Assembly: GCA_945787785.1 (NCBI GenBank)
Contig: CALZIO010000001.1
Coordinates: 61,169-125,168, forward strand
Length of the DNA: 64,000 nucleotides
Source: an uncultured Chromatiaceae bacterium
GTDB lineage: Bacteria > Pseudomonadota > Gammaproteobacteria > Tenderiales > Tenderiaceae
Reading direction: 5' to 3'
The notes beneath the pieces are model-generated. The model was not told the origin of the DNA, made no database searches, and was given only the letters and a program-made list of their open reading frames with translations. A program made the translations under genes and the position numbers. How positions within the stretch are numbered: position 1 is the first letter of the stretch; every line of letters begins with the position of its first letter. This document shows positions 16,109 to 32,066 of this stretch, in pieces.

Positions 16109-16624
16109 ATGCCTGCAACAACAAAATATAGACATCTGACGAAGTTTCTTGGCGCCTCTGTCACCTGCTTTTTCATTGGCAGCATTCACGGGGTGCTTCA
16201 AATGCTCCCTCCGATTCGCGCCTGGCTAGATAGCATCGGCAGCCCTTATGGCGGTCCAGGCCATATGATCGATCCGCTGGCCCATGCCCATATCAATCTT
16301 ATCGGTGGAGTGATGATGCTGGCCATGGCAGTCACCTACTACTTGTTACCGCGTTTTACCGGCACCGAGATATGGTCACGCAAACTGGAAGACATCTCTT
16401 TTTGGCTAACCCTTCTCGGTGTCACCTGTTTTTACGGCAGCCTGTTGATCTTTGGCATCTGGGAAGGCCAGCTGCTACTGCAAGAAGGCGCCGAGCACAT
16501 AAACGAAGTACATAAGATTTATATCCCTATCGGCGCGCTGTCGGCCACCATCATGGGGATTGGCCTGTGGCTGTTCCTAGCAAACAGCGCCATGACTATA
16601 TTTAAATCCAGACACAATTCATGA
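16109..16624 (+). CDS. 4-TM membrane protein homologous to the C-terminal HxH helices of CcoN/heme-copper oxidase subunit I (mini-HCO, copy 1)
   Basis: 171 aa with four TM helices. The LAHAHINLIGG and SFWLTLLG motifs align with WIVAHAHLALLGF and FHFWFLLIGF of the CcoN-like protein at 27543..28949. Paralog at 30961..31479. Confidence 0.6.
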   Translation: MPATTKYRHLTKFLGASVTCFFIGSIHGVLQMLPPIRAWLDSIGSPYGGPGHMIDPLAHAHINLIGGVMMLAMAVTYYLLPRFTGTEIWSRKLEDISFWLTLLGVTCFYGSLLIFGIWEGQLLLQEGAEHINEVHKIYIPIGALSATIMGIGLWLFLANSAMTIFKSRHNS

Positions 16625-17188: not shown

Positions 17189-17572
17189 TTATAAATCGCC
17201 GTCATAGACCAGCGGAAACTCCAACACTACTTCTTCACCTGCCTTTTTCTTTTGCAGTTGAACATAGAGAAAAGGCCCACCTGACAGACGCAGGGCGCGA
17301 CGATAAACACCGCTATGGCCATCCTGAATCGCCTGCTGCCAGTTATCGCCGGCCTCAGCCCGCAACGAGATAATAAGATCCCGCACAGGCTTACCGCGTT
17401 CCAGAGTGGCTAACACCAGGAACTCATTCATCCCTGGACGAACGGGTATCGGTCTCGATTGAATCTCGATCACTACATCATTCCACTTCTGTGGCGTAAT
17501 CTGGTAACGGGGATCAGGATCACTACAGGCAGATATCAGCACGGCAATTAATACAGCAAACAAACTTCGCAT
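17189..17572 (-). CDS. lipoprotein, unknown function
   Basis: 127 aa with lipobox LISAC. Last gene of the ccoG operon. Confidence 0.5.
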   Translation of the reverse strand: MRSLFAVLIAVLISACSDPDPRYQITPQKWNDVVIEIQSRPIPVRPGMNEFLVLATLERGKPVRDLIISLRAEAGDNWQQAIQDGHSGVYRRALRLSGGPFLYVQLQKKKAGEEVVLEFPLVYDGDL

Positions 17573-17865
17573 CAGACACTCTTGGCAAATTGTTGTAAAT
17601 ACTTCAGCGTAACACCCAGCTCATGCTCGCTCATCAGCTCATAGGCCTTCATGCGGCGCCGCTCTTGCATGCGGTGGATAACATTGGGCCATTCCTTAGC
17701 AGTATGAGCCAGCGGACTTGGTGGCGCATGGCAATCGGAACAGAACTTCTTCACCATTTGCGCACCTTCAGATTCCGGTTCCGGTAACTTAACTCTAGTG
17801 TTCTCTTGAGGCAGCTCACAGGCAGATAAAAACAGCGCCAGCACAAAAAACCCGAATCTAGCCAT
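17572..17865 (-). CDS. small monoheme c-type cytochrome lipoprotein
   Basis: 97 aa with lipobox FLSAC and a single CSDCH heme-binding motif. Confidence 0.65.
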   Translation of the reverse strand: MARFGFFVLALFLSACELPQENTRVKLPEPESEGAQMVKKFCSDCHAPPSPLAHTAKEWPNVIHRMQERRRMKAYELMSEHELGVTLKYLQQFAKSV

Positions 17866-18299
17866 TAGCTCGGGTGCTTGTTATCAGTCTGCTTATGCTC
17901 TTCTTCGGTTTTGTCCAGATCGAGGCGGCCACCAAGTTTAGAGCCATACAGGCGCACCATGAAATAAACGAATATCGATGCCACTAGGAGATAAAGAATT
18001 GCTATGCCAAACCCCCAATCAATCCAGGCACGCTCATAACCCGGGCGATCACCCCAAAAGGGGAAACTCAAACCGATGGCCACCAACAACACCACGATCA
18101 CCACACCAATGAACCACTTCGGTATCCCCTTTTGCGACTCCGGGATTGACTCCAGCAGCTCCCAGTCTTCCATGCCTCGCTTGGCTAGCCGCTCTTCATC
18201 CGTGTCATAACCAAAATGGTCTTCCGGTGTTTTACCCCATTTGCTGTCAATCGAAGTCAACTTCTCTTTTGGCAAGGGCTTGTTCTGTTGCTCGCTCAT
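17865..18299 (-). CDS. membrane protein with FixP_N-like (CcoP N-terminal) domain and no heme motif
   Basis: 144 aa. QKGIPKWFIGVVIV..FPFWGDRP resembles the CcoP N-domain region NPLPRWWFLLFIG..YP. No CxxCH. Paralog at 25925..26554. Confidence 0.5.
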   Translation of the reverse strand: MSEQQNKPLPKEKLTSIDSKWGKTPEDHFGYDTDEERLAKRGMEDWELLESIPESQKGIPKWFIGVVIVVLLVAIGLSFPFWGDRPGYERAWIDWGFGIAILYLLVASIFVYFMVRLYGSKLGGRLDLDKTEEEHKQTDNKHPS

Positions 18300-19612
18300 A
18301 CGCTACCCGCTGAAAAATGTTGGAGGCGGAAACTGTCTTCCCAGCCGTCCTCGGATTTTACCCGCACCAGTATTGGATGCAGACCCTTTGGCAAATCAGG
18401 ACGTATGCTTAATTTCACATTGATACGCCCTGCGGTATCAAAATCGACCCAATCGTTCTGCAATGTGTAGGCATCTTGCTCCAGGCCTTCTATCGAAACG
18501 TACAACCGAGTCGGTTCATAAAATTTATTAGCTACCGAGATACGATAATCGAGAATTTTATCTGCCTGCAGAGTATCCGCACGGTAGGCCGACAGGTGAT
18601 ACCGCTCGTAGTCCCAAAATCCCCAGGCCATCAATAACACACCAATGATAAAAATAGGGAATGTCCAGGAGACTCGGGAGAATAGATCATTCACGTTAGT
18701 CTTGAAATAGGCAAAGCTTTGCCCCTGGCGCTCACCCATAGCAAATTTCAACAACCCCTGTTTGCCAGTCTCTTTACGTGCCTGCAAGGTGTCACAGGCA
18801 GTAATGCACTCACCACAGTTGATACAGGTATCATAGACATCCGTTTTGCGTGGATCGATTGCCAGAAAACAGGAGCTTACGCAGTAATTACATTTGGCGC
18901 ACTCATCCGAGCGTGTATCATCATAAGCCACATGCAGAGTCTGGCGAGTTTTGAAGGTATGTTGCCATACCTTGTAGATGCACATGAAACGGCACATAAA
19001 ATGACGAATCATGGTGATATCTACCAGGATCACCAGAAAGAAAACGGTATATATCCAATGTAGCGATGGCGCCAAACCAGGATCATACTGGAAGCTGACG
19101 AACTTCCAGATCAATATTGGATCATAAAAATAAAACAAGGGTATTAAGGCAACCAGAGCTGACACCCCAGCAGACAACAGAATCAAAATAATCCAATTTA
19201 GAGTCCTATTCTTTGCTGCCGACAGCTGCATTGGTGAGCCGTCCAGACTAATGTCGGCGCGTTTGCCCAACAGCTTGTGAGTCATGCGGTTAGCCCATTC
19301 CGACATGGTGTTCTGCGGACAGGCCCAACCACAAAACACCGTACCCATCACCGAATAGAGCATGGCCAACAGGCAGGCGACTGCGACCCAGAAACCGAAC
19401 ACAATACCAAAATCAGAAAACCAGATTTGCCGGCCCAGAATGACAAACGCGCCCTGAATTGGATCGATACGAAACAGGCCGCTCATCGGAATAAGCACCA
19501 GCAAGGCCATGACGGACAATTGAAAAGCACGGCGCTGCCAATGCAATTTATTTATCGACTTGCGGGATTCGACTAGAACGGGAATTTCACCCAACGTTTT
19601 GTTGGTACTCAT
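18296..19612 (-). CDS. ccoG: cbb3 oxidase accessory protein CcoG/FixG (4Fe-4S ferredoxin-type)
   Basis: 438 aa. TM helices with FCGWACPQ, plus two ferredoxin cysteine clusters: CAKCNYCVSSC and CINCGECITAC. Confidence 0.85.
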   Translation of the reverse strand: MSTNKTLGEIPVLVESRKSINKLHWQRRAFQLSVMALLVLIPMSGLFRIDPIQGAFVILGRQIWFSDFGIVFGFWVAVACLLAMLYSVMGTVFCGWACPQNTMSEWANRMTHKLLGKRADISLDGSPMQLSAAKNRTLNWIILILLSAGVSALVALIPLFYFYDPILIWKFVSFQYDPGLAPSLHWIYTVFFLVILVDITMIRHFMCRFMCIYKVWQHTFKTRQTLHVAYDDTRSDECAKCNYCVSSCFLAIDPRKTDVYDTCINCGECITACDTLQARKETGKQGLLKFAMGERQGQSFAYFKTNVNDLFSRVSWTFPIFIIGVLLMAWGFWDYERYHLSAYRADTLQADKILDYRISVANKFYEPTRLYVSIEGLEQDAYTLQNDWVDFDTAGRINVKLSIRPDLPKGLHPILVRVKSEDGWEDSFRLQHFSAGSV

Positions 19613-19674: not shown

Positions 19675-22311
19675 TTAACGCTGTAAAACAGCATCCAACG
19701 GACTATATTTCTGTAACATTTGCCGGTATTCATCTGCCCGGCCCTTATTACCCTCAGCCAACTCCAGCTGCCACAACGCGCGCAAGGCATCGACGTGGTC
19801 AGGCCGGATAAATAGTATTGCTTCCAGCGTCTTACGTGGATCCGCTCCGCGCGCAGTCATGCTCTGCAGACTTACATACATACGATCAGCCAGGGCGCCA
19901 CTGACCCAACGGTCTTTAGGATTGGCTTGGTAAGCAAGTTGCAATAAGCGTTGCCCCTGACGCGCATCACCCTTTAGTTCAGCCACCCAGGCACGTAACG
20001 CGAGCTCTGTGGCCACATATCCGCGCTCGAATAACTCAGCCTGGGCCATTTCAACTTGCAAGGCCTGATGCGCCTGATTCAGATGAGGGCGTTGTTGCAA
20101 TAGCCACTCCATCAACACCACCAGGTCCATCTCACCTCGATAACGAGCCCGAGGCAGATGATATTCAATGACAGGCGCCCACTCACCCTGAACAGGACCT
20201 TCTGACAGCGTGACAGGGCCCCAGTAGCGTCCCAACCAACTCCAGACACCTTCACTACCCGTGATTTGCTGCTGTGCTGCCTGATCTAGCTTAGCCAGGC
20301 TTTGCAATGTTGTATGTACACTTACCCGCCATTGTTTACCACCCACCAGCGCCAAGCGAAAACCATCAACAAACATCAACGCATCCGGAAAAACCTGCTT
20401 AAAAGTGCGTAACACCACTTTGAGGGATTCGGGATCAAACTGATTCAATGCCAACCACTGCACAAACAAGCCACCTTCAACCAGACGCGATTTGGCTCGC
20501 TGAAATTGCTGTAACGACAACAAGGCACTGCGTCCGACCAAGTCCGGATGAAACAGATCACCGATAATCACATCGTAGCTTTGTGTTGTTGTTTGCAAAA
20601 AACGACGCGCATCGTCACGCACGATTTTCATTTTGTCGCTGATATCATCATTGACTGGCGCAAACCACACCTGTGCCGCCTCTATCGCCCCCTGCGACAA
20701 CTCGACTGCAGTACGTTCCAGCTGTGGATAGGGCAACGATGCCGCAGCCGAAATGCCTGTCCCCAGGCCAAGGAACAATACCTGCTGTGGATCCGGGTGC
20801 AGCAATAAAGGCAGACGCACCTGATTTTGTTGTGACACCACAGCCAGTGGCTCAGATGAAGCATCCATACGCTGCAAATCAGCCAGTAACAGACGTTGAC
20901 CATCTTCACGTTTAATTACATGAGTAATCGCCAGGGCATTTTCATGCACAAACAAGTCGCGACTATTGGCCTGCCCTTGTGGCAACAACTGATTGACAGC
21001 AGGCATTTGTGAAACAGGCCAGGCCAAGACCAGCAACAACGGCAATGCTATCCAACTTCGCTGCGCCGCCCATGCCATTCCAGAAATAAACAACAACAAC
21101 GCTGCCAGCACAATCGTCCCAACTGTGCCCAGCAACGGGACCAATACAAAGCCAGCGACCAACGCCCCTGCTGCGGCGCCGATGGAATTGGCACCATACA
21201 ATTTTGCACCTATCGATTTGTCCTGCCCCAGGCGTGCACTCAACAAAGGCAACCAAGCACCCAGCAACAGAGTCACTGGCAGAGTCAACAATGCGATTGC
21301 TATTCCCTGGGCCAACATTGCACCGGCCAGGGAGTTAAATTCACTCTGTTCCGCCCAGGCGGCTAACAATGGAATCAACCAGAGACTCAACAAGGCAAAC
21401 ACCGCGGTCGCAATTGGTAACACATCAAACCACCAACGCGCCAGCAACCGTCTCGCCAACAAACTGCCAACACCAATCCCCACCAAAAACACCGCCAGGA
21501 TGACCGCCATGACATACTCAGTGCGCAACAACAGCATGCCAAATAGGCGCGTCCAACCAACCTCCAGCATCAAGGCGGCGGCACCAACACCGGCATAGGC
21601 AAATAGTGTGATGAGGTTGATTGATGTTTTTGAAACCGGCTGATTGGAAACGGGCATTTCGAACTTACTCTGGCCTGACTGATTCCGGCGCGACAATAAC
21701 CACGCTGCTGCGCCTACAGCTATTCCTATCATGGCCACCAACCAAACACCCGCCACCCAGCCTAGCGTTGGTAATAGTAACAATGGCAGTAATGCACCAA
21801 TGGCACCACCACAGGTGTTCAGACCGTAAACCCAACTCAGTGACAGTGAAGTATGTTGCACCGCCCTTAACACGAGCGGAAAACCAATCCCCATCAATGT
21901 AGCTGGCAAGGTGATCAAGACGAGTGCTGCGATCAGCTGCATGGCATACCACAAGGATAAGCTCTCAGGTGCTAAATACGTTACCCCTCCATCAACCATG
22001 CGTAAGATGAATGGCAACACCAAGGCATAGAGCGCCACACTAACTTCGATAATCGCAAAAAGTCGCAATGGGTTTTGTCTGTTGTGGCTAATACGACCAC
22101 CCCATAATGCACCAATACCCAGACCCAGCATAAAGGCAGCGGCGCTAACAACAACCCCAAAAATACTGACACCGAATTGCAGCGATAGCATGCGTGCCCA
22201 CAACACCTGGTACGCCAGACCAACTGCACCGGAAAAAAAGTAAAGCGTCGCCACGCCTCTAGCAAAGGATGGGGCCGTTATAACCTGAGCTGGAACCACA
22301 ACAGACATCAA
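19675..22311 (-). CDS. multi-TM / spermidine-synthase-like / TPR fusion protein
   Basis: 878 aa. About 12 N-terminal TM helices, a central PABS-like domain (YDVIIGDLFHPD..GGLFVQW) and a C-terminal TPR-like helical region. Confidence 0.7.
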   Translation of the reverse strand: MMSVVVPAQVITAPSFARGVATLYFFSGAVGLAYQVLWARMLSLQFGVSIFGVVVSAAAFMLGLGIGALWGGRISHNRQNPLRLFAIIEVSVALYALVLPFILRMVDGGVTYLAPESLSLWYAMQLIAALVLITLPATLMGIGFPLVLRAVQHTSLSLSWVYGLNTCGGAIGALLPLLLLPTLGWVAGVWLVAMIGIAVGAAAWLLSRRNQSGQSKFEMPVSNQPVSKTSINLITLFAYAGVGAAALMLEVGWTRLFGMLLLRTEYVMAVILAVFLVGIGVGSLLARRLLARWWFDVLPIATAVFALLSLWLIPLLAAWAEQSEFNSLAGAMLAQGIAIALLTLPVTLLLGAWLPLLSARLGQDKSIGAKLYGANSIGAAAGALVAGFVLVPLLGTVGTIVLAALLLFISGMAWAAQRSWIALPLLLVLAWPVSQMPAVNQLLPQGQANSRDLFVHENALAITHVIKREDGQRLLLADLQRMDASSEPLAVVSQQNQVRLPLLLHPDPQQVLFLGLGTGISAAASLPYPQLERTAVELSQGAIEAAQVWFAPVNDDISDKMKIVRDDARRFLQTTTQSYDVIIGDLFHPDLVGRSALLSLQQFQRAKSRLVEGGLFVQWLALNQFDPESLKVVLRTFKQVFPDALMFVDGFRLALVGGKQWRVSVHTTLQSLAKLDQAAQQQITGSEGVWSWLGRYWGPVTLSEGPVQGEWAPVIEYHLPRARYRGEMDLVVLMEWLLQQRPHLNQAHQALQVEMAQAELFERGYVATELALRAWVAELKGDARQGQRLLQLAYQANPKDRWVSGALADRMYVSLQSMTARGADPRKTLEAILFIRPDHVDALRALWQLELAEGNKGRADEYRQMLQKYSPLDAVLQR

Positions 22312-22358
22312 TAAGCCTTAACACTCAGAGTGTGGCTTGAGTGGTACATAGCAAAAAA

Positions 22359-22739
22359 CTAGAAAGGAAAAAACCAGACAATGGCAGTCACCGCATGGGC
22401 AATGCCAAGTGTAACCGTCAGGCCAGCACTAATCATGTGCGGCACAAAAACTTCTTTATTAAAGACCACCATCGAAACACCAAGATAGGCCGTGCTACAG
22501 AGCAACAACAACAGGGCAATGCCCATATAAAATAGTATCTTGTGCTTAACCTCGTCCTTGACCTCGTAGGCTTCCTGTTGCGCCAGCGCCTCTTGGTTGA
22601 AAGCCTCCATTACCTCCAATGTATCATCGATACGTTGCTGCTCTTGTGCATGCGCGAACGGCATTGCCAGACAGAGAGAAAGCACCAGCAGCGCTGACAC
22701 TAGAGCAATACGATGTTTCAAGCAACGGTAAAGACTCAT
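22359..22739 (-). CDS. exported/membrane hypothetical protein
   Basis: 126 aa with signal peptide and C-terminal TM segments. Last gene of a tightly packed operon. Confidence 0.4.
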   Translation of the reverse strand: MSLYRCLKHRIALVSALLVLSLCLAMPFAHAQEQQRIDDTLEVMEAFNQEALAQQEAYEVKDEVKHKILFYMGIALLLLLCSTAYLGVSMVVFNKEVFVPHMISAGLTVTLGIAHAVTAIVWFFPF

Positions 22740-22744
22740 ACTAT

Positions 22745-22978
22745 TTATTTCTCACCCTTTGCGGCTTCCTCTTTGTTTTTCCGCATCGCATTGTGCCAAT
22801 AGAGTATTGCCATTAGGACAAACGGAAATAACACAGCAATCAGTAAGAAAATAAAAATCATCCATGGCGTATCTATGGTGACGTGCATATAACGATAACT
22901 GTCTGCCATCGCGGCCGGCATCATCAGTAACATCGCCATAAGCACAGCCAACTGACTCAATAATTTATTCATCAGCAT
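22745..22978 (-). CDS. small membrane protein (77 aa)
   Basis: Signal/TM segment plus a second TM. Overlaps the upstream FGE-family gene by 14 nt. Confidence 0.4.
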   Translation of the reverse strand: MLMNKLLSQLAVLMAMLLMMPAAMADSYRYMHVTIDTPWMIFIFLLIAVLFPFVLMAILYWHNAMRKNKEEAAKGEK

Positions 22979-24047
22979 TTACCCCTTCTTTTACATCCGC
23001 AGCACAACGAAAACCGAAAAAATCTGATGCATAATGTGGCCAGGAATAATTTCGGTGATAGGTGGTCGTAGAAAATGGGTCACTTTTCCAAGAGCCACCA
23101 CGCAACACTTTGTATTTGGCATCCACGCCCACTAAATCCACCACCTTCATGGCACGATCTGCGGGTGTAGAAGCGACTTGAATCTTGCCTTTAAAAATGT
23201 TCTGGTCTGCATCTGTGTTTTTATAGGGTAGAAAATCATCCTCAATCCACTCAGACACATTGCCAGCCATATCCATAACACCATACGGACTGGCACCATC
23301 AGAGTAACTCGTCACATCTGTGGTCGAACCCATATTGTAATAAGTATTGAGACGGGCTGTTTCCATCTGCTCACCCCAGGGCCAGCGCCGACCATCGTCG
23401 CCGCGCGCGGCTTTTTCCCATTCTGTTTCATGAGGCAAGCGCTTATTAGCCCAGGTACAATAGTTGCTGGCATCGTACCAGGAAATCATCGTCACCGGAT
23501 GCAATTCCATCCCTTCTTGTATGCGCCCATTTTCCCAATCAAGCGGCGGCCGATATCCATGCTCTGCAACAAAGCGAGCGTACTGGGCATTGGTGGTTGG
23601 GTATTTATCAATCTTATATTCGACTAGATTGACTTCATGTTTGGGATGATTCTGAGCGCTGGTTCTGATCCTGTCTGAGCCCATATAAAAAGGACCGGCA
23701 GGGATAGTTGCCATGCTATTGACCTCAACCCATTGCTCCGGACTTAACAGCGCCTCTACTTCTGCGAGACTATATGGTATCGTCTTTGCCCGGTCAGCCT
23801 CATGCCTTTCGTGCAGAGCTATATCTTCACCAGCAGCACGAATACGGCTATTCATTTCAGTCAGGTCATAGGTTGCCTTGCTAGACATTTCCTGGAAGAC
23901 GCGACTGTGACCCAAATCAACCACGTGAATCGCCCCACCCACCATGGCCAATGCGGCACACGTCACAAGAGTCGCACTTAGAAAGCGTTTACGTCTAGCC
24001 CGCTCCGTTACCGAGAGCTGACGTCTATTTTTATACTGCTTCTCCAT
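22965..24047 (-). CDS. membrane-anchored FGE-sulfatase (SUMF1/NirV-like) family protein
   Basis: 360 aa with an N-terminal TM. Motifs RLPHETEWEKAARG, MAGNVSEWIEDD, RVLRGGSW and GFRC match the FGE-sulfatase domain. Confidence 0.8.
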   Translation of the reverse strand: MEKQYKNRRQLSVTERARRKRFLSATLVTCAALAMVGGAIHVVDLGHSRVFQEMSSKATYDLTEMNSRIRAAGEDIALHERHEADRAKTIPYSLAEVEALLSPEQWVEVNSMATIPAGPFYMGSDRIRTSAQNHPKHEVNLVEYKIDKYPTTNAQYARFVAEHGYRPPLDWENGRIQEGMELHPVTMISWYDASNYCTWANKRLPHETEWEKAARGDDGRRWPWGEQMETARLNTYYNMGSTTDVTSYSDGASPYGVMDMAGNVSEWIEDDFLPYKNTDADQNIFKGKIQVASTPADRAMKVVDLVGVDAKYKVLRGGSWKSDPFSTTTYHRNYSWPHYASDFFGFRCAADVKEGVNADE

Positions 24048-24532
24048 TAACTTTCTGGGTCTGAAGGGCCGTTCTTAGAAGGCTGCTTATAGATCAAATG
24101 CTTCGGTCGTCGTCCATAGGTTCTTTTGATGACGATCTCACCAAACACACCACCAAATGCCGCCGCTTCAATAGCTACGATCAAAACCAGAATCCAGTAC
24201 CCAAACGGCAACAGGCCAACACCATCGGGCAACCCTTCGTAGTTCATCATTTGAATATAACTGTAACCACGGACGATGATAGGAACAAAATAACAAATCA
24301 ATTTACCGCCTAGGCCATAAACTAATGACACTACCATACCGGCAACAAATGGGACTAAAAACAGCGTTAATACCCACATCGGGCTAAAGGTCGAGACGCC
24401 AAAAAATAATTCCAGCCGTACACCCGGTGGCGGACTGAGATAATTCATTAAACGATCGCCAAAGTAATTTACAATTACACCAGCTGTAATGGCGACTGTA
24501 CCCATAACGATAGTCATTACACGGTTATTCAT
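24047..24532 (-). CDS. 4-TM membrane protein, unknown function
   Basis: 161 aa. Overlaps neighbouring genes by 1 nt and 8 nt, so translationally coupled. Confidence 0.5.
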   Translation of the reverse strand: MNNRVMTIVMGTVAITAGVIVNYFGDRLMNYLSPPPGVRLELFFGVSTFSPMWVLTLFLVPFVAGMVVSLVYGLGGKLICYFVPIIVRGYSYIQMMNYEGLPDGVGLLPFGYWILVLIVAIEAAAFGGVFGEIVIKRTYGRRPKHLIYKQPSKNGPSDPES

Positions 24533-25025
24533 TACTATCGCCTTGATACGACTCGCCAGTCAGTTTCTCAAACTCAGACTTTTTCACTTGATTTAAATAC
24601 CAGTCTTCAACCTTTAAGTTCGCCAGATATGCCGCCAGGGTTTTGCGATCTTCTTCAGGCAAATGGGAAAATGACGGCATTTGATATTCTGCTTTCAGCC
24701 GCGTTGGCAAAATCTGCTGTGGATCTGCTGCCGAAAGATAATCAAATAACCATGACTCATCACGCAGCGAACCGATCCCATCTAGAGCGGGTGCTGGCAC
24801 AGCCTGCATCGGATTCCGTACACCCCACAATGTGTGACAATCACGGCACTTTTGCTCCCGATAGAGTTCTCCACCCTTTTTCCGGACCTCGTTTGAGGCT
24901 GTACTATAAAAGGGAATTCCTTTATCCGGCTCAGTTTCTTGAGCTTGCCGATAACTATTTATACCTATAAACACAAAAACAATAACCGCGATTACAACCA
25001 GGATCCCTTTTTCACCTTTTCGCAT
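24525..25025 (-). CDS. membrane-anchored monoheme cytochrome c, NorC/CcoO-like
   Basis: 166 aa with an N-terminal TM. ELYREQKCRDCHTLWG resembles the NorC heme region. Paralog at 31494..32066. Confidence 0.7.
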   Translation of the reverse strand: MRKGEKGILVVIAVIVFVFIGINSYRQAQETEPDKGIPFYSTASNEVRKKGGELYREQKCRDCHTLWGVRNPMQAVPAPALDGIGSLRDESWLFDYLSAADPQQILPTRLKAEYQMPSFSHLPEEDRKTLAAYLANLKVEDWYLNQVKKSEFEKLTGESYQGDSNE

Positions 25026-25319
25026 TTATTCTTTGTTCTCAGCTTTTTCTTTTAAATTTTTATTCTCTGCTTTCTCTTGTAAAAGCTCTTCACGGCGTTT
25101 CATTTGAGCCTTCATGACATCCTGACTTTTCTTGAACTCTTCAGGCGTCATCTTATCCTTATCATTTTCATCAAACACCAGGTATTTGATATCCTCATCA
25201 AACTGTTCATTACGCGCAGCCCAGCGTATGGCAAAGATGGCAGCAACTATAATCAAGACACCGGCAACTAACCATACATAAATCGTCCAACCATCAGGTA
25301 ATTTATCTAAATCCATCAA
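25026..25319 (-). CDS. single-TM protein with charged C-terminal tail
   Basis: 97 aa. Adjacent to the cytochrome gene with no intergenic gap. Confidence 0.4.
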   Translation of the reverse strand: MMDLDKLPDGWTIYVWLVAGVLIIVAAIFAIRWAARNEQFDEDIKYLVFDENDKDKMTPEEFKKSQDVMKAQMKRREELLQEKAENKNLKEKAENKE

Positions 25320-25328
25320 ACCTCTCCT

Positions 25329-25652
25329 CTAAAATAGGTAACCTTGCAGCAACTGCATTGCCGCCATAATCACTGCCGCAACAATACCTAGATAAATCCA
25401 AAAAAACATGATTTTTTCACCAGTTTTGAGCTGCTTGACTGGCCCATCGGCATTAGTAGTTTTTGAACTACTTCTCATAAACTTAAATACAATAACTGTA
25501 AAAACAGCAATGCAAAAAAGCAGAAAGATAAAGATTCCCACACTAAACTGCTGGCTGTATAGACCTTCAACTCCCCAGCGATCATCCGTTATAGCCTGCA
25601 CAAATAGACCATCAAAGGCTGAAAAGGTTGCCAATGAGTCATGATAATTCAT
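25329..25652 (-). CDS. 2-TM membrane protein (start at ATG 25652; ORF-track TTG start at 25703 less likely)
   Basis: 107 aa. The terminator at 25702..25727 lies upstream, so this gene begins a new transcription unit. Confidence 0.4.
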   Translation of the reverse strand: MNYHDSLATFSAFDGLFVQAITDDRWGVEGLYSQQFSVGIFIFLLFCIAVFTVIVFKFMRSSSKTTNADGPVKQLKTGEKIMFFWIYLGIVAAVIMAAMQLLQGYLF

Positions 25653-25701
25653 CACACTTAATACCTGACTTTTGATATACCAAAGAACCGTAGTATACCT
25701 C

Positions 25702-25727
25702 AAAAAAAATGCCGCTCAGAGAGCGGC
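25702..25727 (-). terminator. rho-independent terminator ending the ccoN-ccoO-FixP_N-41aa unit
   Basis: On the minus strand: stem GCCGCTC..GAGCGGC followed by a T8 run. A second hairpin at 25744..25766. Confidence 0.5.
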
Positions 25728-25778
25728 AATAATATTCATCAAACTCCGGAGGTAAAAGCCTCCGGGTTTATTACATTG

Positions 25779-25904
25779 TTATGAATCTATCTGTTTCTTG
25801 CCTTTATCGTAATTATCAATAAAGAAACTGTAGATAAATGGGGCAACAAACACAACAATAATGATGCCCAGCAGCACCAACGGTGGATTATCAATATCTA
25901 TCAT
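25779..25904 (-). CDS. tiny single-TM protein (41 aa), possible CcoQ-position micro-subunit
   Basis: MIDIDNPPLVLLGIIIVVFVAPFIYSFFIDNYDKGKKQIDS. Sits between the FixP_N-like gene and the terminator. Confidence 0.3.
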   Translation of the reverse strand: MIDIDNPPLVLLGIIIVVFVAPFIYSFFIDNYDKGKKQIDS

Positions 25905-25924: not shown

Positions 25925-26554
25925 TTAGTGTGCAACACTGTGATCAGGCTGCCAACTGTAGTGTGGCAGACGCTTGATGACTATCAGCACCGCAATACAG
26001 AAATAAGCTACGTAGAAGATATCGATGGTATAACCCTTATCCCACCAAGGCTGTTTACGTTCACGAGTACCATCTGCTTTCCAATTGCCTTCGAAATTAG
26101 CCAGGACGACATGCGGACCAACGACTGTGTATTCACCCAGGTCAACACCCTTACGTTGTAACTCAATAACCTGACCTTCAATCATACGCAGATCATCCAT
26201 CTCAAGCGGGTGACGATCCAGCTGCCCCTGAATTCTTGCATTAGAGCTTTTGCCATTAGCCACGATGTACTCCATCTTGGCCCTGTCCCCATCAATCGCC
26301 TGAACTGCTGGACTATTCATCAACTTCAAATAGTCCTCATAGATTTCAGCCGTTGGGCGTTGCCCCCAAAGAGGGAAGGTAACCAAAAAAGCGCTGATAA
26401 TTGTCAAGCCCAGCAACCACACAACCGGTGATGGCAGACGGTTATTATCTTCTGCAATTCCCCCTAAACTTTCACCTTCCCATACCTTGGTTGCTGCTGA
26501 ATTTTGCTCTTCGTCAGTCAACGAGTACAGCGGTTTATCCATTTTCCATGACAT
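25925..26554 (-). CDS. membrane protein with FixP_N-like domain only (CcoP lacking both cytochrome c domains)
   Basis: 209 aa. NNRLPSPVVWLLGLTIISAFLVTFPLWGQRP aligns with CcoP [26 protein letters not shown]. No CxxCH. Lies directly downstream of the ccoO-like gene. Confidence 0.6.
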   Translation of the reverse strand: MSWKMDKPLYSLTDEEQNSAATKVWEGESLGGIAEDNNRLPSPVVWLLGLTIISAFLVTFPLWGQRPTAEIYEDYLKLMNSPAVQAIDGDRAKMEYIVANGKSSNARIQGQLDRHPLEMDDLRMIEGQVIELQRKGVDLGEYTVVGPHVVLANFEGNWKADGTRERKQPWWDKGYTIDIFYVAYFCIAVLIVIKRLPHYSWQPDHSVAH

Positions 26555-26568
26555 TGTTATTCTCCCCC

Positions 26569-27519
26569 TTACTTCAGGCTCATGATGAAGTCGATAAGAT
26601 AGCGAATTTCGCTATCCGCTGCGTAGTTTGGCACATCCGGCGGTATGACAGTTTTGCCATGCGCGTAGTCATTGTATGCTGTTCTCCAGGCATCATAGTC
26701 GATAGCCTTACCATCAGCATCATTCTCACCCCAGAGGTAATCATAACGAGGCATGATTGAATGTGGTTGCACCAAACGAGGATTAAAAAAGTGCATCATC
26801 ATCCACTCTTTAGATGCGTTACGAGAACCAACATGCAACAAGTCAGGTGCTTTCCGGTCAGAACCAAAGGCTGTTGGCGATTCACCATTATAATCACCTA
26901 GACGTGGTGGAATCCCAAAATACTGCCAATCCTGAGTTTGTTCAGGCAGCAAGGTATGACACCACCAGCAACCTTCACGAACAAACATGATTTTACCCGA
27001 ACCAATCAAATGGGTATTTGCATCACCCGCCGCATTCAACACCTGACTAGGCTGCCAACCACGAGTCGCTGATGCGTTCTCGATGTAGTTAACAGTTTCG
27101 CCATTGTGAGTGGCACGACTAATTACAAACACAGCACCATTATCGTGGTTAGCCTCTTCAATACGACCCTGCGCTGTACTCAACTCCGTTGCACCTGGAC
27201 CCAGTGTACGAGGATGGTTAATCCCACTCGGGAAAGGAGTGCCAGCTTCATACACAAATGCCTGCACAGTTTCGATTGGCTCATTGGTTTTAGGATCTTT
27301 ATTCAGAACCACTGTCTTCGGCTTGCCGTCACCGCGTAAAAATGGATCTTCATATGAGAACCCACCAATGCGGCCATAAGACAACTGCTTCGTTAAGCCC
27401 ATTTCAGTTACGGCTACTGATGTCATATCCACTGTAGGCATGTACAGCGTAATAACCATCGAGCCACCCAAGGCTACACCAAACAGGCGTGAGCCAATTT
27501 TATATTCTCTAAATGCCAT
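26569..27519 (-). CDS. ccoO: CcoO-like monoheme subunit II of cbb3-type oxidase, with an insertion of about 110 aa
   Basis: 316 aa with an N-terminal TM. VREGCWWCH and PDLLHVGSRNASKEWMMMHFFNPRLVQPHSIMPRY align with CcoO regions EGCYLCHS and [35 protein letters not shown]. Confidence 0.8.
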   Translation of the reverse strand: MAFREYKIGSRLFGVALGGSMVITLYMPTVDMTSVAVTEMGLTKQLSYGRIGGFSYEDPFLRGDGKPKTVVLNKDPKTNEPIETVQAFVYEAGTPFPSGINHPRTLGPGATELSTAQGRIEEANHDNGAVFVISRATHNGETVNYIENASATRGWQPSQVLNAAGDANTHLIGSGKIMFVREGCWWCHTLLPEQTQDWQYFGIPPRLGDYNGESPTAFGSDRKAPDLLHVGSRNASKEWMMMHFFNPRLVQPHSIMPRYDYLWGENDADGKAIDYDAWRTAYNDYAHGKTVIPPDVPNYAADSEIRYLIDFIMSLK

Positions 27520-27542: not shown

Positions 27543-28949
27543 TTAACGTTCGTACGCCAATTCGTGTGGCAGACGGCCTTCTGGGATTTCAGTTCCGGCT
27601 TTAGCGGTCATATACATGTTGTACAACCAGACTATGTTACCGGTGAATACCATGGTGCCACCAATCCAACGCGCAATCATGTATGGATGTTCAGCGATTA
27701 CAACGTCAATATAGGGAACCTCGTAGATCTTACCTGCACCCTGAATCAAACCAGCGATGGTCATTGAAATCCAGTAGATTGCAAATCCGATCAGCAAGAA
27801 CCAGAAGTGGAAGTTAGCCAACGCCAGCGAATAAAGTTTACGACGCAGGATTGTTTGCAGACCGTAGTACACAGCCGCAGCTTCCAGAAATGTAGAGAAG
27901 CCAAGCAAGGCTAAATGAGCATGGGCAACGATCCAACCCGTACCATGGATATACCAGTTGATAGCACGTGTTTGTTGAAACCCACCTTGCATGTTCAGAG
28001 GAATCGCCAACATGACACCCGTGATGGTGTATTTGATTTCGACATTTTCCACAAACATGTGCCACTTACCAGTCATGGTCAACAGCAGGTTAGATACGAA
28101 AGCAATTGCAGGCACCAGGATCAACACCCCTTCTACAGAAGCGAATGACTTCAGCCACTCAGGCAAAGGCGCTGACATCAAATGGTGAGCCGCTGGTGTT
28201 GAGTAGAACACAACAACGGACCAAAAGTGCAAGTGACCAATACGATGCGAATAAAGCGGGTTACCGGTTACTTTTGGTACAGTGTAGTAAGCAATCGCCG
28301 CTGCGATTGGTGTAATCCAAAGACCTAATACATTGTGCGCAAACCACCATGTCAGGTATGCCTCACTCAAACCGGTCAGATTGAAGAACTCAGGGCTGTT
28401 ACCTACGATAAAAACGATGGTAACCATGAACACGCCAGCACCAAAGAACCAGTTAGTTGTATAGATGCCCTGGGTACGACGTTTGAGGATAGTCATCCAA
28501 ACGTTAAGCGCCATAGGTAATGCAATAAATGCAGCAATGTACAAATCTATAGCCCATGGAAAATCTGAATACTCACGACCAGAAGTCATACCGAACCACA
28601 GCAGAGTAAGGCCCAACGACAGACCGACGTTCCACAAGAAGCAGTTCCATACACCGAGTTTTTCAGACCACAGCTTGGTATTACCCAGCGCAGGCGTGAT
28701 GTACATCATTGCCATGGCGAATGCCATAGAAATCCAGCCAAAAATTACTGCCAGTACGTGAACCTGACGCATGTGACCGAACGAAAACAACTCAGAACCT
28801 GTCACAAAATCAGGAAATGCCAGTTTGGCCGCGTTAAACGATCCCAAACCAGTACCAACCACAAACCAAATAATAGACGAGAAACCAAAGAATACCGCTG
28901 CCGTACCTGGCGGGATATCCTCATTTCTTCTAAATAGATATTTCAACAT
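27543..28949 (-). CDS. ccoN: cbb3-type (C-family) heme-copper oxidase subunit I, CcoN-like
   Basis: 468 aa with 12 TM helices. Carries GHMRQVH, WWFAHN, FYSTPAAHH (Tyr six residues before the HH pair) and VAHAH. Confidence 0.85.
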   Translation of the reverse strand: MLKYLFRRNEDIPPGTAAVFFGFSSIIWFVVGTGLGSFNAAKLAFPDFVTGSELFSFGHMRQVHVLAVIFGWISMAFAMAMMYITPALGNTKLWSEKLGVWNCFLWNVGLSLGLTLLWFGMTSGREYSDFPWAIDLYIAAFIALPMALNVWMTILKRRTQGIYTTNWFFGAGVFMVTIVFIVGNSPEFFNLTGLSEAYLTWWFAHNVLGLWITPIAAAIAYYTVPKVTGNPLYSHRIGHLHFWSVVVFYSTPAAHHLMSAPLPEWLKSFASVEGVLILVPAIAFVSNLLLTMTGKWHMFVENVEIKYTITGVMLAIPLNMQGGFQQTRAINWYIHGTGWIVAHAHLALLGFSTFLEAAAVYYGLQTILRRKLYSLALANFHFWFLLIGFAIYWISMTIAGLIQGAGKIYEVPYIDVVIAEHPYMIARWIGGTMVFTGNIVWLYNMYMTAKAGTEIPEGRLPHELAYER

Positions 28950-30453: not shown

Positions 30454-30983
30454 TAACCTGTCTCAGAGCCAAGAACTTTCTTAAGCGTATACTCCAGCTC
30501 GCCGTACAGAACCCGTCCAGCCTGCTTGTACTGCACCACCTGATTTTCATCAATCACGTAAGTCCAGGGGTCACCCATGACCTTAAATGCCTTGAATGCT
30601 TCAGGGTTTTGATACTGATCCATATGCAGGAATATCACATCGTCGCCATAGACTTCCATTATCCCTTTCAACATCTGCAGCTGTTTATCGCAGACGGTAC
30701 AGTGTCCGGGCGTCGCAAATTCAAGCACAATAGGTTTACCTTGCGCCAAGGCATCATCCAGCGAATACTGGTACATTCTCTCATCAGGGTGGCGGTAACT
30801 GGTAATGCGACTGAAATCCCCGCCCACATCGGCTAAAGTCTTGGTCTTTACCTGAGGAGCAGTTGACCCCACTTGCAGCGAACCCTCAGGTGAGGCGCCA
30901 CAACCAACCAGTAATAAAGTAACTGACAACCCTAACAGGAACCGCATCATAGCCGCTCTCCTAATAATTCTTTTCCCAACCAA
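30453..30983 (-). CDS. TlpA/ResA-like thioredoxin-fold lipoprotein (CxxC)
   Basis: 176 aa with lipobox LLVGC. HCTVC redox motif in a thioredoxin-fold context (VLEFATPGHCTVC). Confidence 0.65.
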   Translation of the reverse strand: MVGKRIIRRAAMMRFLLGLSVTLLLVGCGASPEGSLQVGSTAPQVKTKTLADVGGDFSRITSYRHPDERMYQYSLDDALAQGKPIVLEFATPGHCTVCDKQLQMLKGIMEVYGDDVIFLHMDQYQNPEAFKAFKVMGDPWTYVIDENQVVQYKQAGRVLYGELEYTLKKVLGSETG

Positions 30984-31479
30984 TACAGGTTCTGACCAGA
31001 TTATATGCCCAGATACAGTTAGCTAACAGCACCATGGTTCCAAACAAACCCATCATAGCCAGCCATGGCTTGACTATCTGCTCCACTTCATCTGGTGACA
31101 TTGAAATGCTTGCCGTACCACCTAAGATGCCCGCAATTGTAAATAACAATACCATCCCAATCAAACCGGTATTATGGATCCAAAAATGCACTTTAACTAA
31201 GGTAACACTGTATATATGTCGCTTAACTAAGCGCGGAATAATGTAGTAAACGCCAGCAAAAATGGCCATTTCCACCCAGCCCAACAGATTTATATGAGTA
31301 TGAGCGCGCACAATCAGATTGCCATGTAAGCGATGGTCAACAAAATGGCGGAAATCTGATATCCCCCCCATTAATGCCCCCCAGGAAAAACCAATAAGAC
31401 TATATATAATGCAGCAGTATACAAACCAGAGAGTATATCGAATATAAACCTTATCCTCTGCCCAAGGTTGACCACTCAC
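30961..31479 (-). CDS. 4-TM mini-HCO paralog (C-terminal CcoN-like helices with HTH motif), copy 2
   Basis: 172 aa. RAHTHINLLGW and VHFWIHNTGLIGMVLLFTIAGILGG align with CcoN WIVAHAHLALLGF and FHFWFLLIGFAIYWISMTIAGLIQG. Confidence 0.6.
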   Translation of the reverse strand: MSGQPWAEDKVYIRYTLWFVYCCIIYSLIGFSWGALMGGISDFRHFVDHRLHGNLIVRAHTHINLLGWVEMAIFAGVYYIIPRLVKRHIYSVTLVKVHFWIHNTGLIGMVLLFTIAGILGGTASISMSPDEVEQIVKPWLAMMGLFGTMVLLANCIWAYNLVRTCIGWEKNY

Positions 31480-31493
31480 GCTATTACCCCCTA

Positions 31494-32066
31494 CTACTTT
31501 TCTTCTGCTTGTTTTTCACGCACATCCTGATACTTATCGCCCCAGTCATCAGGAGCAACCATCTTTAACATGCTATCAATAAACTGAGACTTCCCTTCAG
31601 GCGGGAGCGCTGATGAAGCAGAACCCTGCTCCGCCTTCAGACCAAAAAGGAACGAAGCTATTGCATGCAGATCTTCATCTGACATTTCAGCAACATAAGC
31701 AGCTTCTTTTGGCGGCATCCCATGATCAATTGTCATGGCCCCATAGGTATCTTCAGGTTTTTTTAGAAATGAATAGATCCAGTCAAAGCTGCGTTTCGAG
31801 CCAAGCCCATCAAGTGACAACCCCATGTTAGTGCCATTACGCATCGCTCGATGACATGAAGTACAACGCGCCTCACGAAAGATCTGAGTTCCACGCCGCC
31901 CTTCTTCATCAAACTCATAGTGGGTCTTGACCTCGAACATAGGCTTGTCTGAATTAAGACGCACAAACTCCAGCACAGCATAACCGATAACTGCCGCGAC
32001 TATGAACGCCCCAAATATTCCAAACAGGACCTTTTCACCCTGTTTTAACGACTGCTTTCCAGACAT
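31494..32066 (-). CDS. membrane-anchored monoheme cytochrome c, NorC-like (paralog of 24525..25025)
   Basis: 190 aa with an N-terminal TM and CTSCH. QIFREARCTSCHRAM..LSLDGLGSKRSFDWIYSFL parallels the paralog. Confidence 0.7.
   Translation of the reverse strand: MSGKQSLKQGEKVLFGIFGAFIVAAVIGYAVLEFVRLNSDKPMFEVKTHYEFDEEGRRGTQIFREARCTSCHRAMRNGTNMGLSLDGLGSKRSFDWIYSFLKKPEDTYGAMTIDHGMPPKEAAYVAEMSDEDLHAIASFLFGLKAEQGSASSALPPEGKSQFIDSMLKMVAPDDWGDKYQDVREKQAEEK

Follow-up and report, generated by a model that had tools for sequence, protein, structure and literature searches.

A haem-free protein with a CcoP-like membrane anchor is encoded directly after ccoO in a divergent cbb3-type oxidase operon

The third gene of the oxidase operon and its relation to CcoP

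A stretch of 64,000 nucleotides from an uncultured Chromatiaceae bacterium (assembly GCA_945787785.1, contig CALZIO010000001.1, positions 61,169 to 125,168 of the forward strand), here called the window and used as the frame for all coordinates, carries a cbb3-type cytochrome oxidase operon whose third gene (25925–26554, minus strand) encodes a 209-aa membrane protein. Profile alignments show that the cytoplasmic N-terminal segment and first membrane helix of this protein are homologous to the anchor of CcoP/FixP; a periplasmic domain and a second helix complete a two-helix hairpin that carries no haem-binding motif. On balance, the protein appears to be a third subunit without haem, belonging to a divergent oxygen reductase of the cbb3 type (C-family) that occurs in iron-oxidising and electroautotrophic bacteria.

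The gene begins with an ATG codon preceded by the Shine-Dalgarno sequence GGGGGAG, 14 nt past the stop codon of a 316-aa FixO-family gene that itself follows a 468-aa COX1-family gene. The original prediction had placed the protein in the slot of ccoP directly behind a ccoO-like gene, and the same position recurred in its relatives. Among 80 fetched loci, ccoO lay immediately upstream of the homologue in all 75 whose contigs allowed the test, and a gene for a 41-aa peptide lay immediately downstream in 78 of 79. In the window this peptide (25779–25904, minus strand) is a hydrophobic single helix with its own Shine-Dalgarno sequence (AAGGAG) and is encoded by the last gene of the operon. Behind it stands an element that resembles an intrinsic terminator by consensus match only (TGCCGCTC-TCT-GAGCGGCA followed by a T run; 25700–25728, minus strand), formed by an 8-bp G+C-rich hairpin and T8 at 25728–25710. 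Both the membrane peptide and the terminator originally predicted behind the gene are therefore present in the sequence, and the genes for the CcoN-like, CcoO-like, 209-aa and 41-aa proteins look like one operon that could be co-transcribed. A mechanically called open reading frame of 124 aa (25329–25703, minus strand) begins with TTG and overlaps the hairpin of the terminator; the gene called at this place in relatives has 107 aa, and translation probably begins at the ATG at 25652.

Five genuine FixP/CcoP sequences, taken from annotated rhizobial, Sphingomonas and Maritalea plasmids together with PDB alignments, served as the reference for the relation to CcoP. The family of the 209-aa protein matched this reference in hhalign with a probability of 92.5% (E 5e-7). 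With the comparison confined to the N-terminal 60–70 residues, the score was 39.5, with probabilities of up to 94.5% and E-values down to 8e-8. The similarity to the CcoP N-terminus noted in the original prediction is thus above chance, as 200 column shuffles gave a mean of 10.0 (standard deviation 1.9) and a maximum of 16.9, and the reversed profile gave 10.1. Residues 26–63 were aligned to FixP residues 15–54, pairing GGIAEDNNRLP and the helix behind it with DGIRELNNPMP and its helix, and the aligned block therefore includes a polar motif outside the membrane. The FixP_N-like segment covers residues 27–63 (26366–26476, minus strand), with Glu35 inside the GGIAEDNNRLP motif and helix 1 at residues 42–62. 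The Pfam family FixP_N (PF14715) was matched by 50 of the 50 family members tested (best E 3.5e-5), no other family recurred among them, and precomputed PF14715 matches are present on some family members.

Canonical CcoP/FixP (3MK7, 5DJQ, 6XKW) consists of the PF14715 anchor and two cytochrome c domains. It shares with the 209-aa protein the cytoplasmic motif (D/G)GIxE-x-(D/N)N-x-x-P with a membrane helix behind it, an invariant glutamate, and a gene position downstream of ccoO within the ccoN-ccoO operon. Unlike CcoP, the protein has neither a cytochrome c domain nor a CxxCH motif, in agreement with the original prediction. The motif is also absent from all 193 full-length relatives, no cytochrome c Pfam family matched the protein or 50 members of its family, and the only cysteine, C186, is located inside the second membrane helix. 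The locus also differs from canonical cbb3 operons in having no ccoQ between ccoO and the third gene. Because the defining haem domains were tested for and are absent, the protein lies outside the CcoP equivalog family. It is an anchor homologue of the FixP_N type whose function probably resembles that of the membrane part of CcoP.

Within the aligned block, Glu35 corresponds in hhalign to the glutamate that is invariant in the FixP alignment, E49 in Pseudomonas (P. stutzeri) CcoP numbering. Of the full-length relatives 190 of 193 have this residue, as do all 24 of the short ones, and its CcoP equivalent is taken here to be the entrance of the proton pathway. The predicted catalytic partner is a ccoN-like protein of 468 aa (27543–28949, minus strand) belonging to the C-family of haem-copper oxidases (COX1 Pfam E 1.8e-75). 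It scores 230 bits against the ccoN model TIGR00780, under the cut-off of 583. In an alignment with P. stutzeri CcoN (3mk7_A, E 1e-62), the six histidine ligands are all present, as is the helix-VII cross-link tyrosine Y249, along with Y221, H241 and T213. The last three are presumably proton-channel residues of P. stutzeri CcoN, which would leave three of the four channel residues assumed here in place. Judged by these residues, the partner CcoN seems to be a functional oxygen reductase that takes up protons by the same path.

The ccoO-like subunit (316 aa; 26569–27519, minus strand) is a monohaem protein with a CWWCH motif and a FixO Pfam match (E 5e-18) in which residues 169–272 align to profile positions 47–149. 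It has about 120 extra residues between the N-terminal anchor and the haem domain. A CcoN with six histidine ligands and the cross-link tyrosine followed by a monohaem CcoO is the arrangement that marks a C-family operon. Since CcoN and CcoO both score below their TIGR equivalog cut-offs, the oxidase is, on sequence grounds, a divergent cbb3 subtype.

Architecture, conservation and the wider family

The architecture of the protein was modelled with AlphaFold2, in a second run on an alignment of 79 diverse relatives that reached a mean pLDDT of 82.7, compared with 69 for an earlier model. A short cytoplasmic helix at residues 15–27 precedes the FixP_N-like segment. Helix 1 is followed by a periplasmic domain of ~105 aa (residues 64–172; 26039–26365, minus strand), in which five helices and a beta-hairpin are packed within residues 69–151 with a pLDDT of about 90 over most of their length. 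The domain is net acidic, with a mean net charge of -3.9. The second membrane helix near the C-terminus, which the original prediction had already called, was placed at residues 173–194 (25973–26038, minus strand), preceded by QPWWDKGY and followed by KRLP. M79 and the RH115P motif are retained in at least 90% of the 79 relatives; an ANFEG motif is strongly conserved, with A152, N153 and G156 invariant, and QPWWD stands at the junction to helix 2. As the N-terminus of CcoP is cytoplasmic (PMC7876108), the N-terminus of the 209-aa protein is likewise inferred to lie inside.

The periplasmic domain, which matches no known fold, and the second C-terminal helix with its PWWDxGY motif are features that canonical CcoP lacks. 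Foldseek searches of two AlphaFold2 models against the PDB returned no match at E<1, cytochrome c included. The domain was also considered as a degenerate cytochrome c, and this was rejected: hhalign of the domain alone gave a probability of 7%, with the CxxCH region deleted from the alignment. Nor could helix 2 or the 41-aa peptide be equated with CcoQ/FixQ or with the extra N-terminal helix of Pseudomonas CcoP, as these comparisons gave hhalign scores of 10–17, which is background; against three FixQ sequences, scores were at the same background level of 15–17. The FixQ family (PF05545) had no Pfam match in the protein, the 41-aa peptide or the family members tested, and searches of the protein against Pfam and NCBIfam gave no CcoH/FixH (PF05751) match at E<=1.

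A search of about 5.8 billion proteins returned 1549 homologues. The best 120 of these are 206–214 aa long and 66–100% identical to the query; for none of the 120 is a Pfam domain precomputed, and wherever a source name is given it reads "hypothetical protein". In a scan of one genome per species, a homologue was found in 310 species genomes. By record title, the carriers are Candidatus Tenderia, Chromatiaceae and Chromatiales metagenome-assembled genomes (MAGs), Gallionella, Nitrosomonadales, Zetaproteobacteria and Ferrovaceae; they are iron oxidisers and electroautotrophs. Identity ranges from 55 to 100% across three proteobacterial classes, and a neighbourhood of about 25 genes retains the same order at 66% identity. 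The protein belongs to an old and strongly conserved family. Its description in the original prediction as a CcoP "reduced" to the N-terminal domain survives in part: the anchor homology and the absence of a haem domain hold, whereas reduction is unproven and the protein has parts that CcoP lacks. Haem domains may have been lost here or may have been added in canonical CcoP.

Beyond the narrow full-length family, an exhaustive profile search found only short proteins of 93–183 aa. These keep both conserved blocks, YDGIxEGxNPxP with helix 1 and PLWGxR, then PWWDxGY with helix 2, separated by a linker of varying length; the QPWWDKGY motif of the 209-aa protein is shared with these short two-helix relatives. 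A profile of the short forms recovered the 205–214 aa family at E of about 1e-20. The homologue was the third gene after COX1 and FixO in six of six further genomic contexts, five of them with short or divergent forms (two Leptospirillia, two Nitrospirae-type and one other MAG) and one with a full-length member of 205 aa. In the contexts checked, the short and divergent forms from Leptospirillia, Nitrospirae and others measure 121–220 aa. The short FixP_N-like proteins as a set (P0143–P0176, 93–220 aa) resemble the 209-aa protein in both blocks, in the third operon position and in having no haem motif. They differ in that the periplasmic domain is small, absent or replaced by an unrelated insert, and in a partner CcoO of 176–223 aa instead of 316. 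CcoO measures 316–318 aa in the iron-oxidiser clusters and 176–223 aa in the Nitrospirae and Leptospirillia clusters, where the third subunits are short; the correspondence between CcoO length and third-gene length is only suggestive, as in locus L096 a CcoO of 176 aa stands beside a homologue of 220 aa.

A different third subunit was found with the closest plasmid matches to the CcoN of the window, the divergent ccoN-ccoO pairs of Paraburkholderia and Ralstonia megaplasmids (L086:4725-7575 and L088:4698-7600; 31–34% identity). The third gene there encodes a monohaem cytochrome of 197–204 aa (L086:6985-7575, L088:6989-7600). It shares with the 209-aa protein the position after ccoN-ccoO and an E-x-x-x-NP(V/I)P anchor motif with one membrane helix, and differs from it in carrying a single cytochrome c domain with CxxCH and in lacking the second helix. 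In terms of domain composition, this architecture is intermediate between dihaem CcoP and the haem-free protein. The third subunits of the C-family therefore form a series of haem-free hairpin, monohaem and dihaem CcoP forms that could be read in either direction.

The window also holds a paralogue of 144 aa without the periplasmic insert (17865–18299, minus strand), which matches residues 13–70 (BLASTP E 4e-4) and residues 167–194 of the 209-aa protein and is conserved in relatives. Its stop codon overlaps the start of a gene for a 97-aa lipoprotein-like monohaem cytochrome c (CSDCH), the pair spanning 17572–18299 on the minus strand directly after the gene for a CcoG-like ferredoxin (18296–19612). 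The paralogue and the cytochrome look like a "split CcoP", with anchor and cytochrome encoded as separate genes.

Proposed role and alternatives

As a stable third subunit, the 209-aa protein would pack its helix 1 on CcoN, as the CcoP helix does, and Glu35 would stand where CcoP has its glutamate, at the cytoplasmic mouth of the single channel for proton input. Without the CcoP haems, electrons would pass straight to the CcoO haem from separately encoded cytochromes. Candidate donors are the co-located cytochromes, namely two membrane-anchored monohaem proteins of 166 and 190 aa and a dihaem protein of 254 aa. The acidic periplasmic domain and helix 2 would be lineage-specific additions, which might, more speculatively, buttress the enlarged CcoO or help a donor to dock. 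The original prediction went further in holding that the CcoP haems had been "moved" onto NorC-like and c4 cytochromes. Nothing ties the co-located cytochromes to the CcoP haem domains, and the "NorC-like" label has only a faint FixO similarity behind it; this part of the prediction was not upheld.

Several observations weigh against a role of this kind or against the homology behind it. Taken as a single sequence, the protein scores 18.8 bits against FixP_N (E 1.4e-3), below the gathering score of 24.9, and the FixP_N match that had been proposed as a check was accordingly obtained across the family members but falls short for the protein itself. Against the ccoP equivalog TIGR00782 it scores 14.3 bits over residues 24–64 only, far from the cut-off of 179.95. 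The family profile found no canonical CcoP at E<=1e-3 among 1.8 billion representative proteins, and no CcoP chains among PDB sequences at E<=10, the latter search being uninformative given the short motif. Glu35 is replaced by alanine in one divergent relative (P0122), and the CcoP glutamate is only reportedly situated at the cytoplasmic entrance of the single cbb3 proton channel (Buschmann et al. 2010; Lee, Gennis and Adelroth 2011). Finally, sequence alone cannot separate a stable subunit from an assembly factor.

The sub-threshold Pfam match and the failure of the large-database searches to reach CcoP would be expected if the protein were an unrelated small membrane protein, resembling FixP_N through chance likeness between hydrophobic helices. 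Such a coincidence is not supported and can hardly be credited, as the common GIxExNNxxP motif lies outside the membrane helix, 0 of 200 shuffles reached the real score (10 for the reversed control), FixP_N was matched by every family member tested and the position after ccoO is conserved. Only slightly less improbable is a decaying remnant of canonical ccoP, left by a recent loss of haem domains or with a periplasmic domain degenerated from a cytochrome c. In full-length hhalign the alignment does continue past the helix and takes in the beginning of FixP haem domain 1 (residues 64–101), and the spacing from D90 to His115 equals that from the Asp to the CxxCH His in FixP, in variants two residues shorter. 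However, this explanation is largely refuted by the low probability for the domain alone, by the lack of any cytochrome Pfam match in 50 members or cytochrome c-like match in Foldseek, and by the conservation of the gene. Recent decay is excluded because length, sequence and synteny are kept across hundreds of genomes and three proteobacterial classes. A disrupted canonical ccoP, which the original prediction had named as the outcome that would overturn it, is not what the locus holds: no broken cytochrome domain lies downstream, and the length of 206–214 aa and the flanking genes are kept in hundreds of genomes.

The main competitor is an oxidase assembly or maturation factor in the manner of CcoH or CcoS, which would use its CcoP-like anchor to bind CcoN transiently and not in stoichiometric amounts. 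The cluster is rich in maturation-type genes, encoding a CcoG-like ferredoxin, a near-threshold FixS/CcoS-like protein, a thioredoxin and an FGE-sulfatase-domain protein, and the Tenderiales preprint suggests that several cluster proteins help assembly (10.1101/2022.05.06.490989). CcoH, moreover, is a precedent for a factor that remains bound to the oxidase (PMC7876108). The gene nevertheless lies inside the ccoN-ccoO operon, ahead of the terminator and apart from the maturation genes, its product has no FixH, FixS or FixQ similarity, and the conserved glutamate at the CcoP proton-entrance position suggests a role in the catalytic cycle. A transient factor is therefore considered a good deal less likely than a stable subunit, though it is the alternative to be taken most seriously. 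More doubtful still is a redox role for the periplasmic domain, which would bind haem b or copper through His115 and Met79, or dock a carrier from iron oxidation. The domain would then be an electron-entry module specific to the cbb3 oxidases of iron oxidisers, holding a non-covalent cofactor or receiving a periplasmic carrier of electrons that come from Cyc2-type outer-membrane oxidases. The retention of M79 and RH115P across the relatives and the confidently folded, acidic domain with no fold match are compatible with this. Yet short relatives without the domain hold the same operon position, so that the core function is independent of it, and no cofactor-binding family was matched among the 50 members. 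A stable, haem-free third subunit thus remains the preferred account of the gene.

Surrounding genes, published clusters and implications

The 166-aa membrane-anchored monohaem cytochrome c, a candidate electron donor or entry module, is encoded at 24525–25025 on the minus strand (Cytochrom_C Pfam E 1.5e-8). It is paralogous, at 27% identity, to the second membrane-anchored monohaem cytochrome of the window (31494–32066, minus strand). It is also homologous (29% identity, E 6e-15), as is its paralogue, to a cytochrome encoded downstream of the third-subunit homologue in a Nitrospirae cluster (L093:6953-7387), and this type of monohaem cytochrome seems to travel with the haem-free third subunits. 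Two truncated CcoN genes are present, one of 172 aa (30961–31479, minus strand) and one of 171 aa (16109–16624, plus strand), each of which matches COX1 over its final four helices alone (profile positions 310–435). The former retains the HxH haem-ligand motif in AHTHINLLGW. Both are conserved in relatives, and one of them follows the membrane-anchored 190-aa cytochrome c. A 97-aa single-helix protein with a long charged tail (25026–25319, minus strand) has a near-threshold FixS/CcoS match (22.5 against 23.1 bits) and may be a CcoS-like maturation factor. Further along (19675–24047, minus strand) are encoded a 360-aa FGE-sulfatase-domain protein and an 878-aa polytopic membrane protein with a spermidine-synthase-like domain, both of which are conserved as part of the oxidase cluster in every relative examined.

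The oxidase cluster has been published before. In the Tenderiales preprint (10.1101/2022.05.06.490989, Fig. 2B) it is drawn as a "cbb3-1/cbb3-2" region and a possible "alternative complex IV", and "truncated CcoN" genes are noted. The published order matches that of the window, running from a dihaem cytochrome, a monohaem cytochrome, a truncated CcoN and a thioredoxin to CcoN, CcoO and the third gene, and continuing, as in the window, as far as the CcoG-like gene and another truncated CcoN. By position in this order the 209-aa protein is the orthologue of ALP51731.1, the product of gene 12, which is unnamed in the preprint. Emerson et al. 2013 described the cluster of ES-1 and PV-1 as one of mostly hypothetical genes (PMC3770913). 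For Ferrovum JA12, FERRO_02570 and FERRO_02560 were assigned as subunits I and II, subunit III was called missing and a co-localised cytochrome was suggested as its possible substitute (PMC4725956); by sequence, the product of the next gene, FERRO_02550, is a member of the family described here (P0216). The papers on the cluster thus leave the gene unnamed or "hypothetical" and draw no link to the CcoP anchor.

Iron oxidisers are reported to have a "proximal" and a "distal" form of cbb3, which are not composed of the same subunits (PMC8788666, PMC7029218). The oxidase of the window probably corresponds to the "distal" type of the Ducluzeau 2008 classification. No paper linking the third gene to the CcoP anchor was found in the literature covered, which did not extend to Ducluzeau 2008, so that an earlier description is possible.

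The oxidase of iron oxidisers has been treated in the published work as consisting of subunits I and II only, whereas the third slot seems to be occupied by a protein without haem that keeps the CcoP anchor and its conserved glutamate. Subunit III may accordingly have a role in the membrane and at the proton entrance that is separable from its role as an electron relay, and the former may be the harder of the two to dispense with. Direct transfer to the haem of CcoO from a co-encoded cytochrome would bear on the route to oxygen of the electrons that neutrophilic iron oxidisers and electroautotrophs draw from extracellular Fe(II) or a cathode. If the periplasmic domain were instead an electron-entry module, the CcoP haem domains would have been functionally replaced by an unrelated structure. 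The existence of haem-free, monohaem and dihaem third subunits also bears on how cbb3 oxidases gained CcoP, and more than 1500 "hypothetical proteins" could be given a name.

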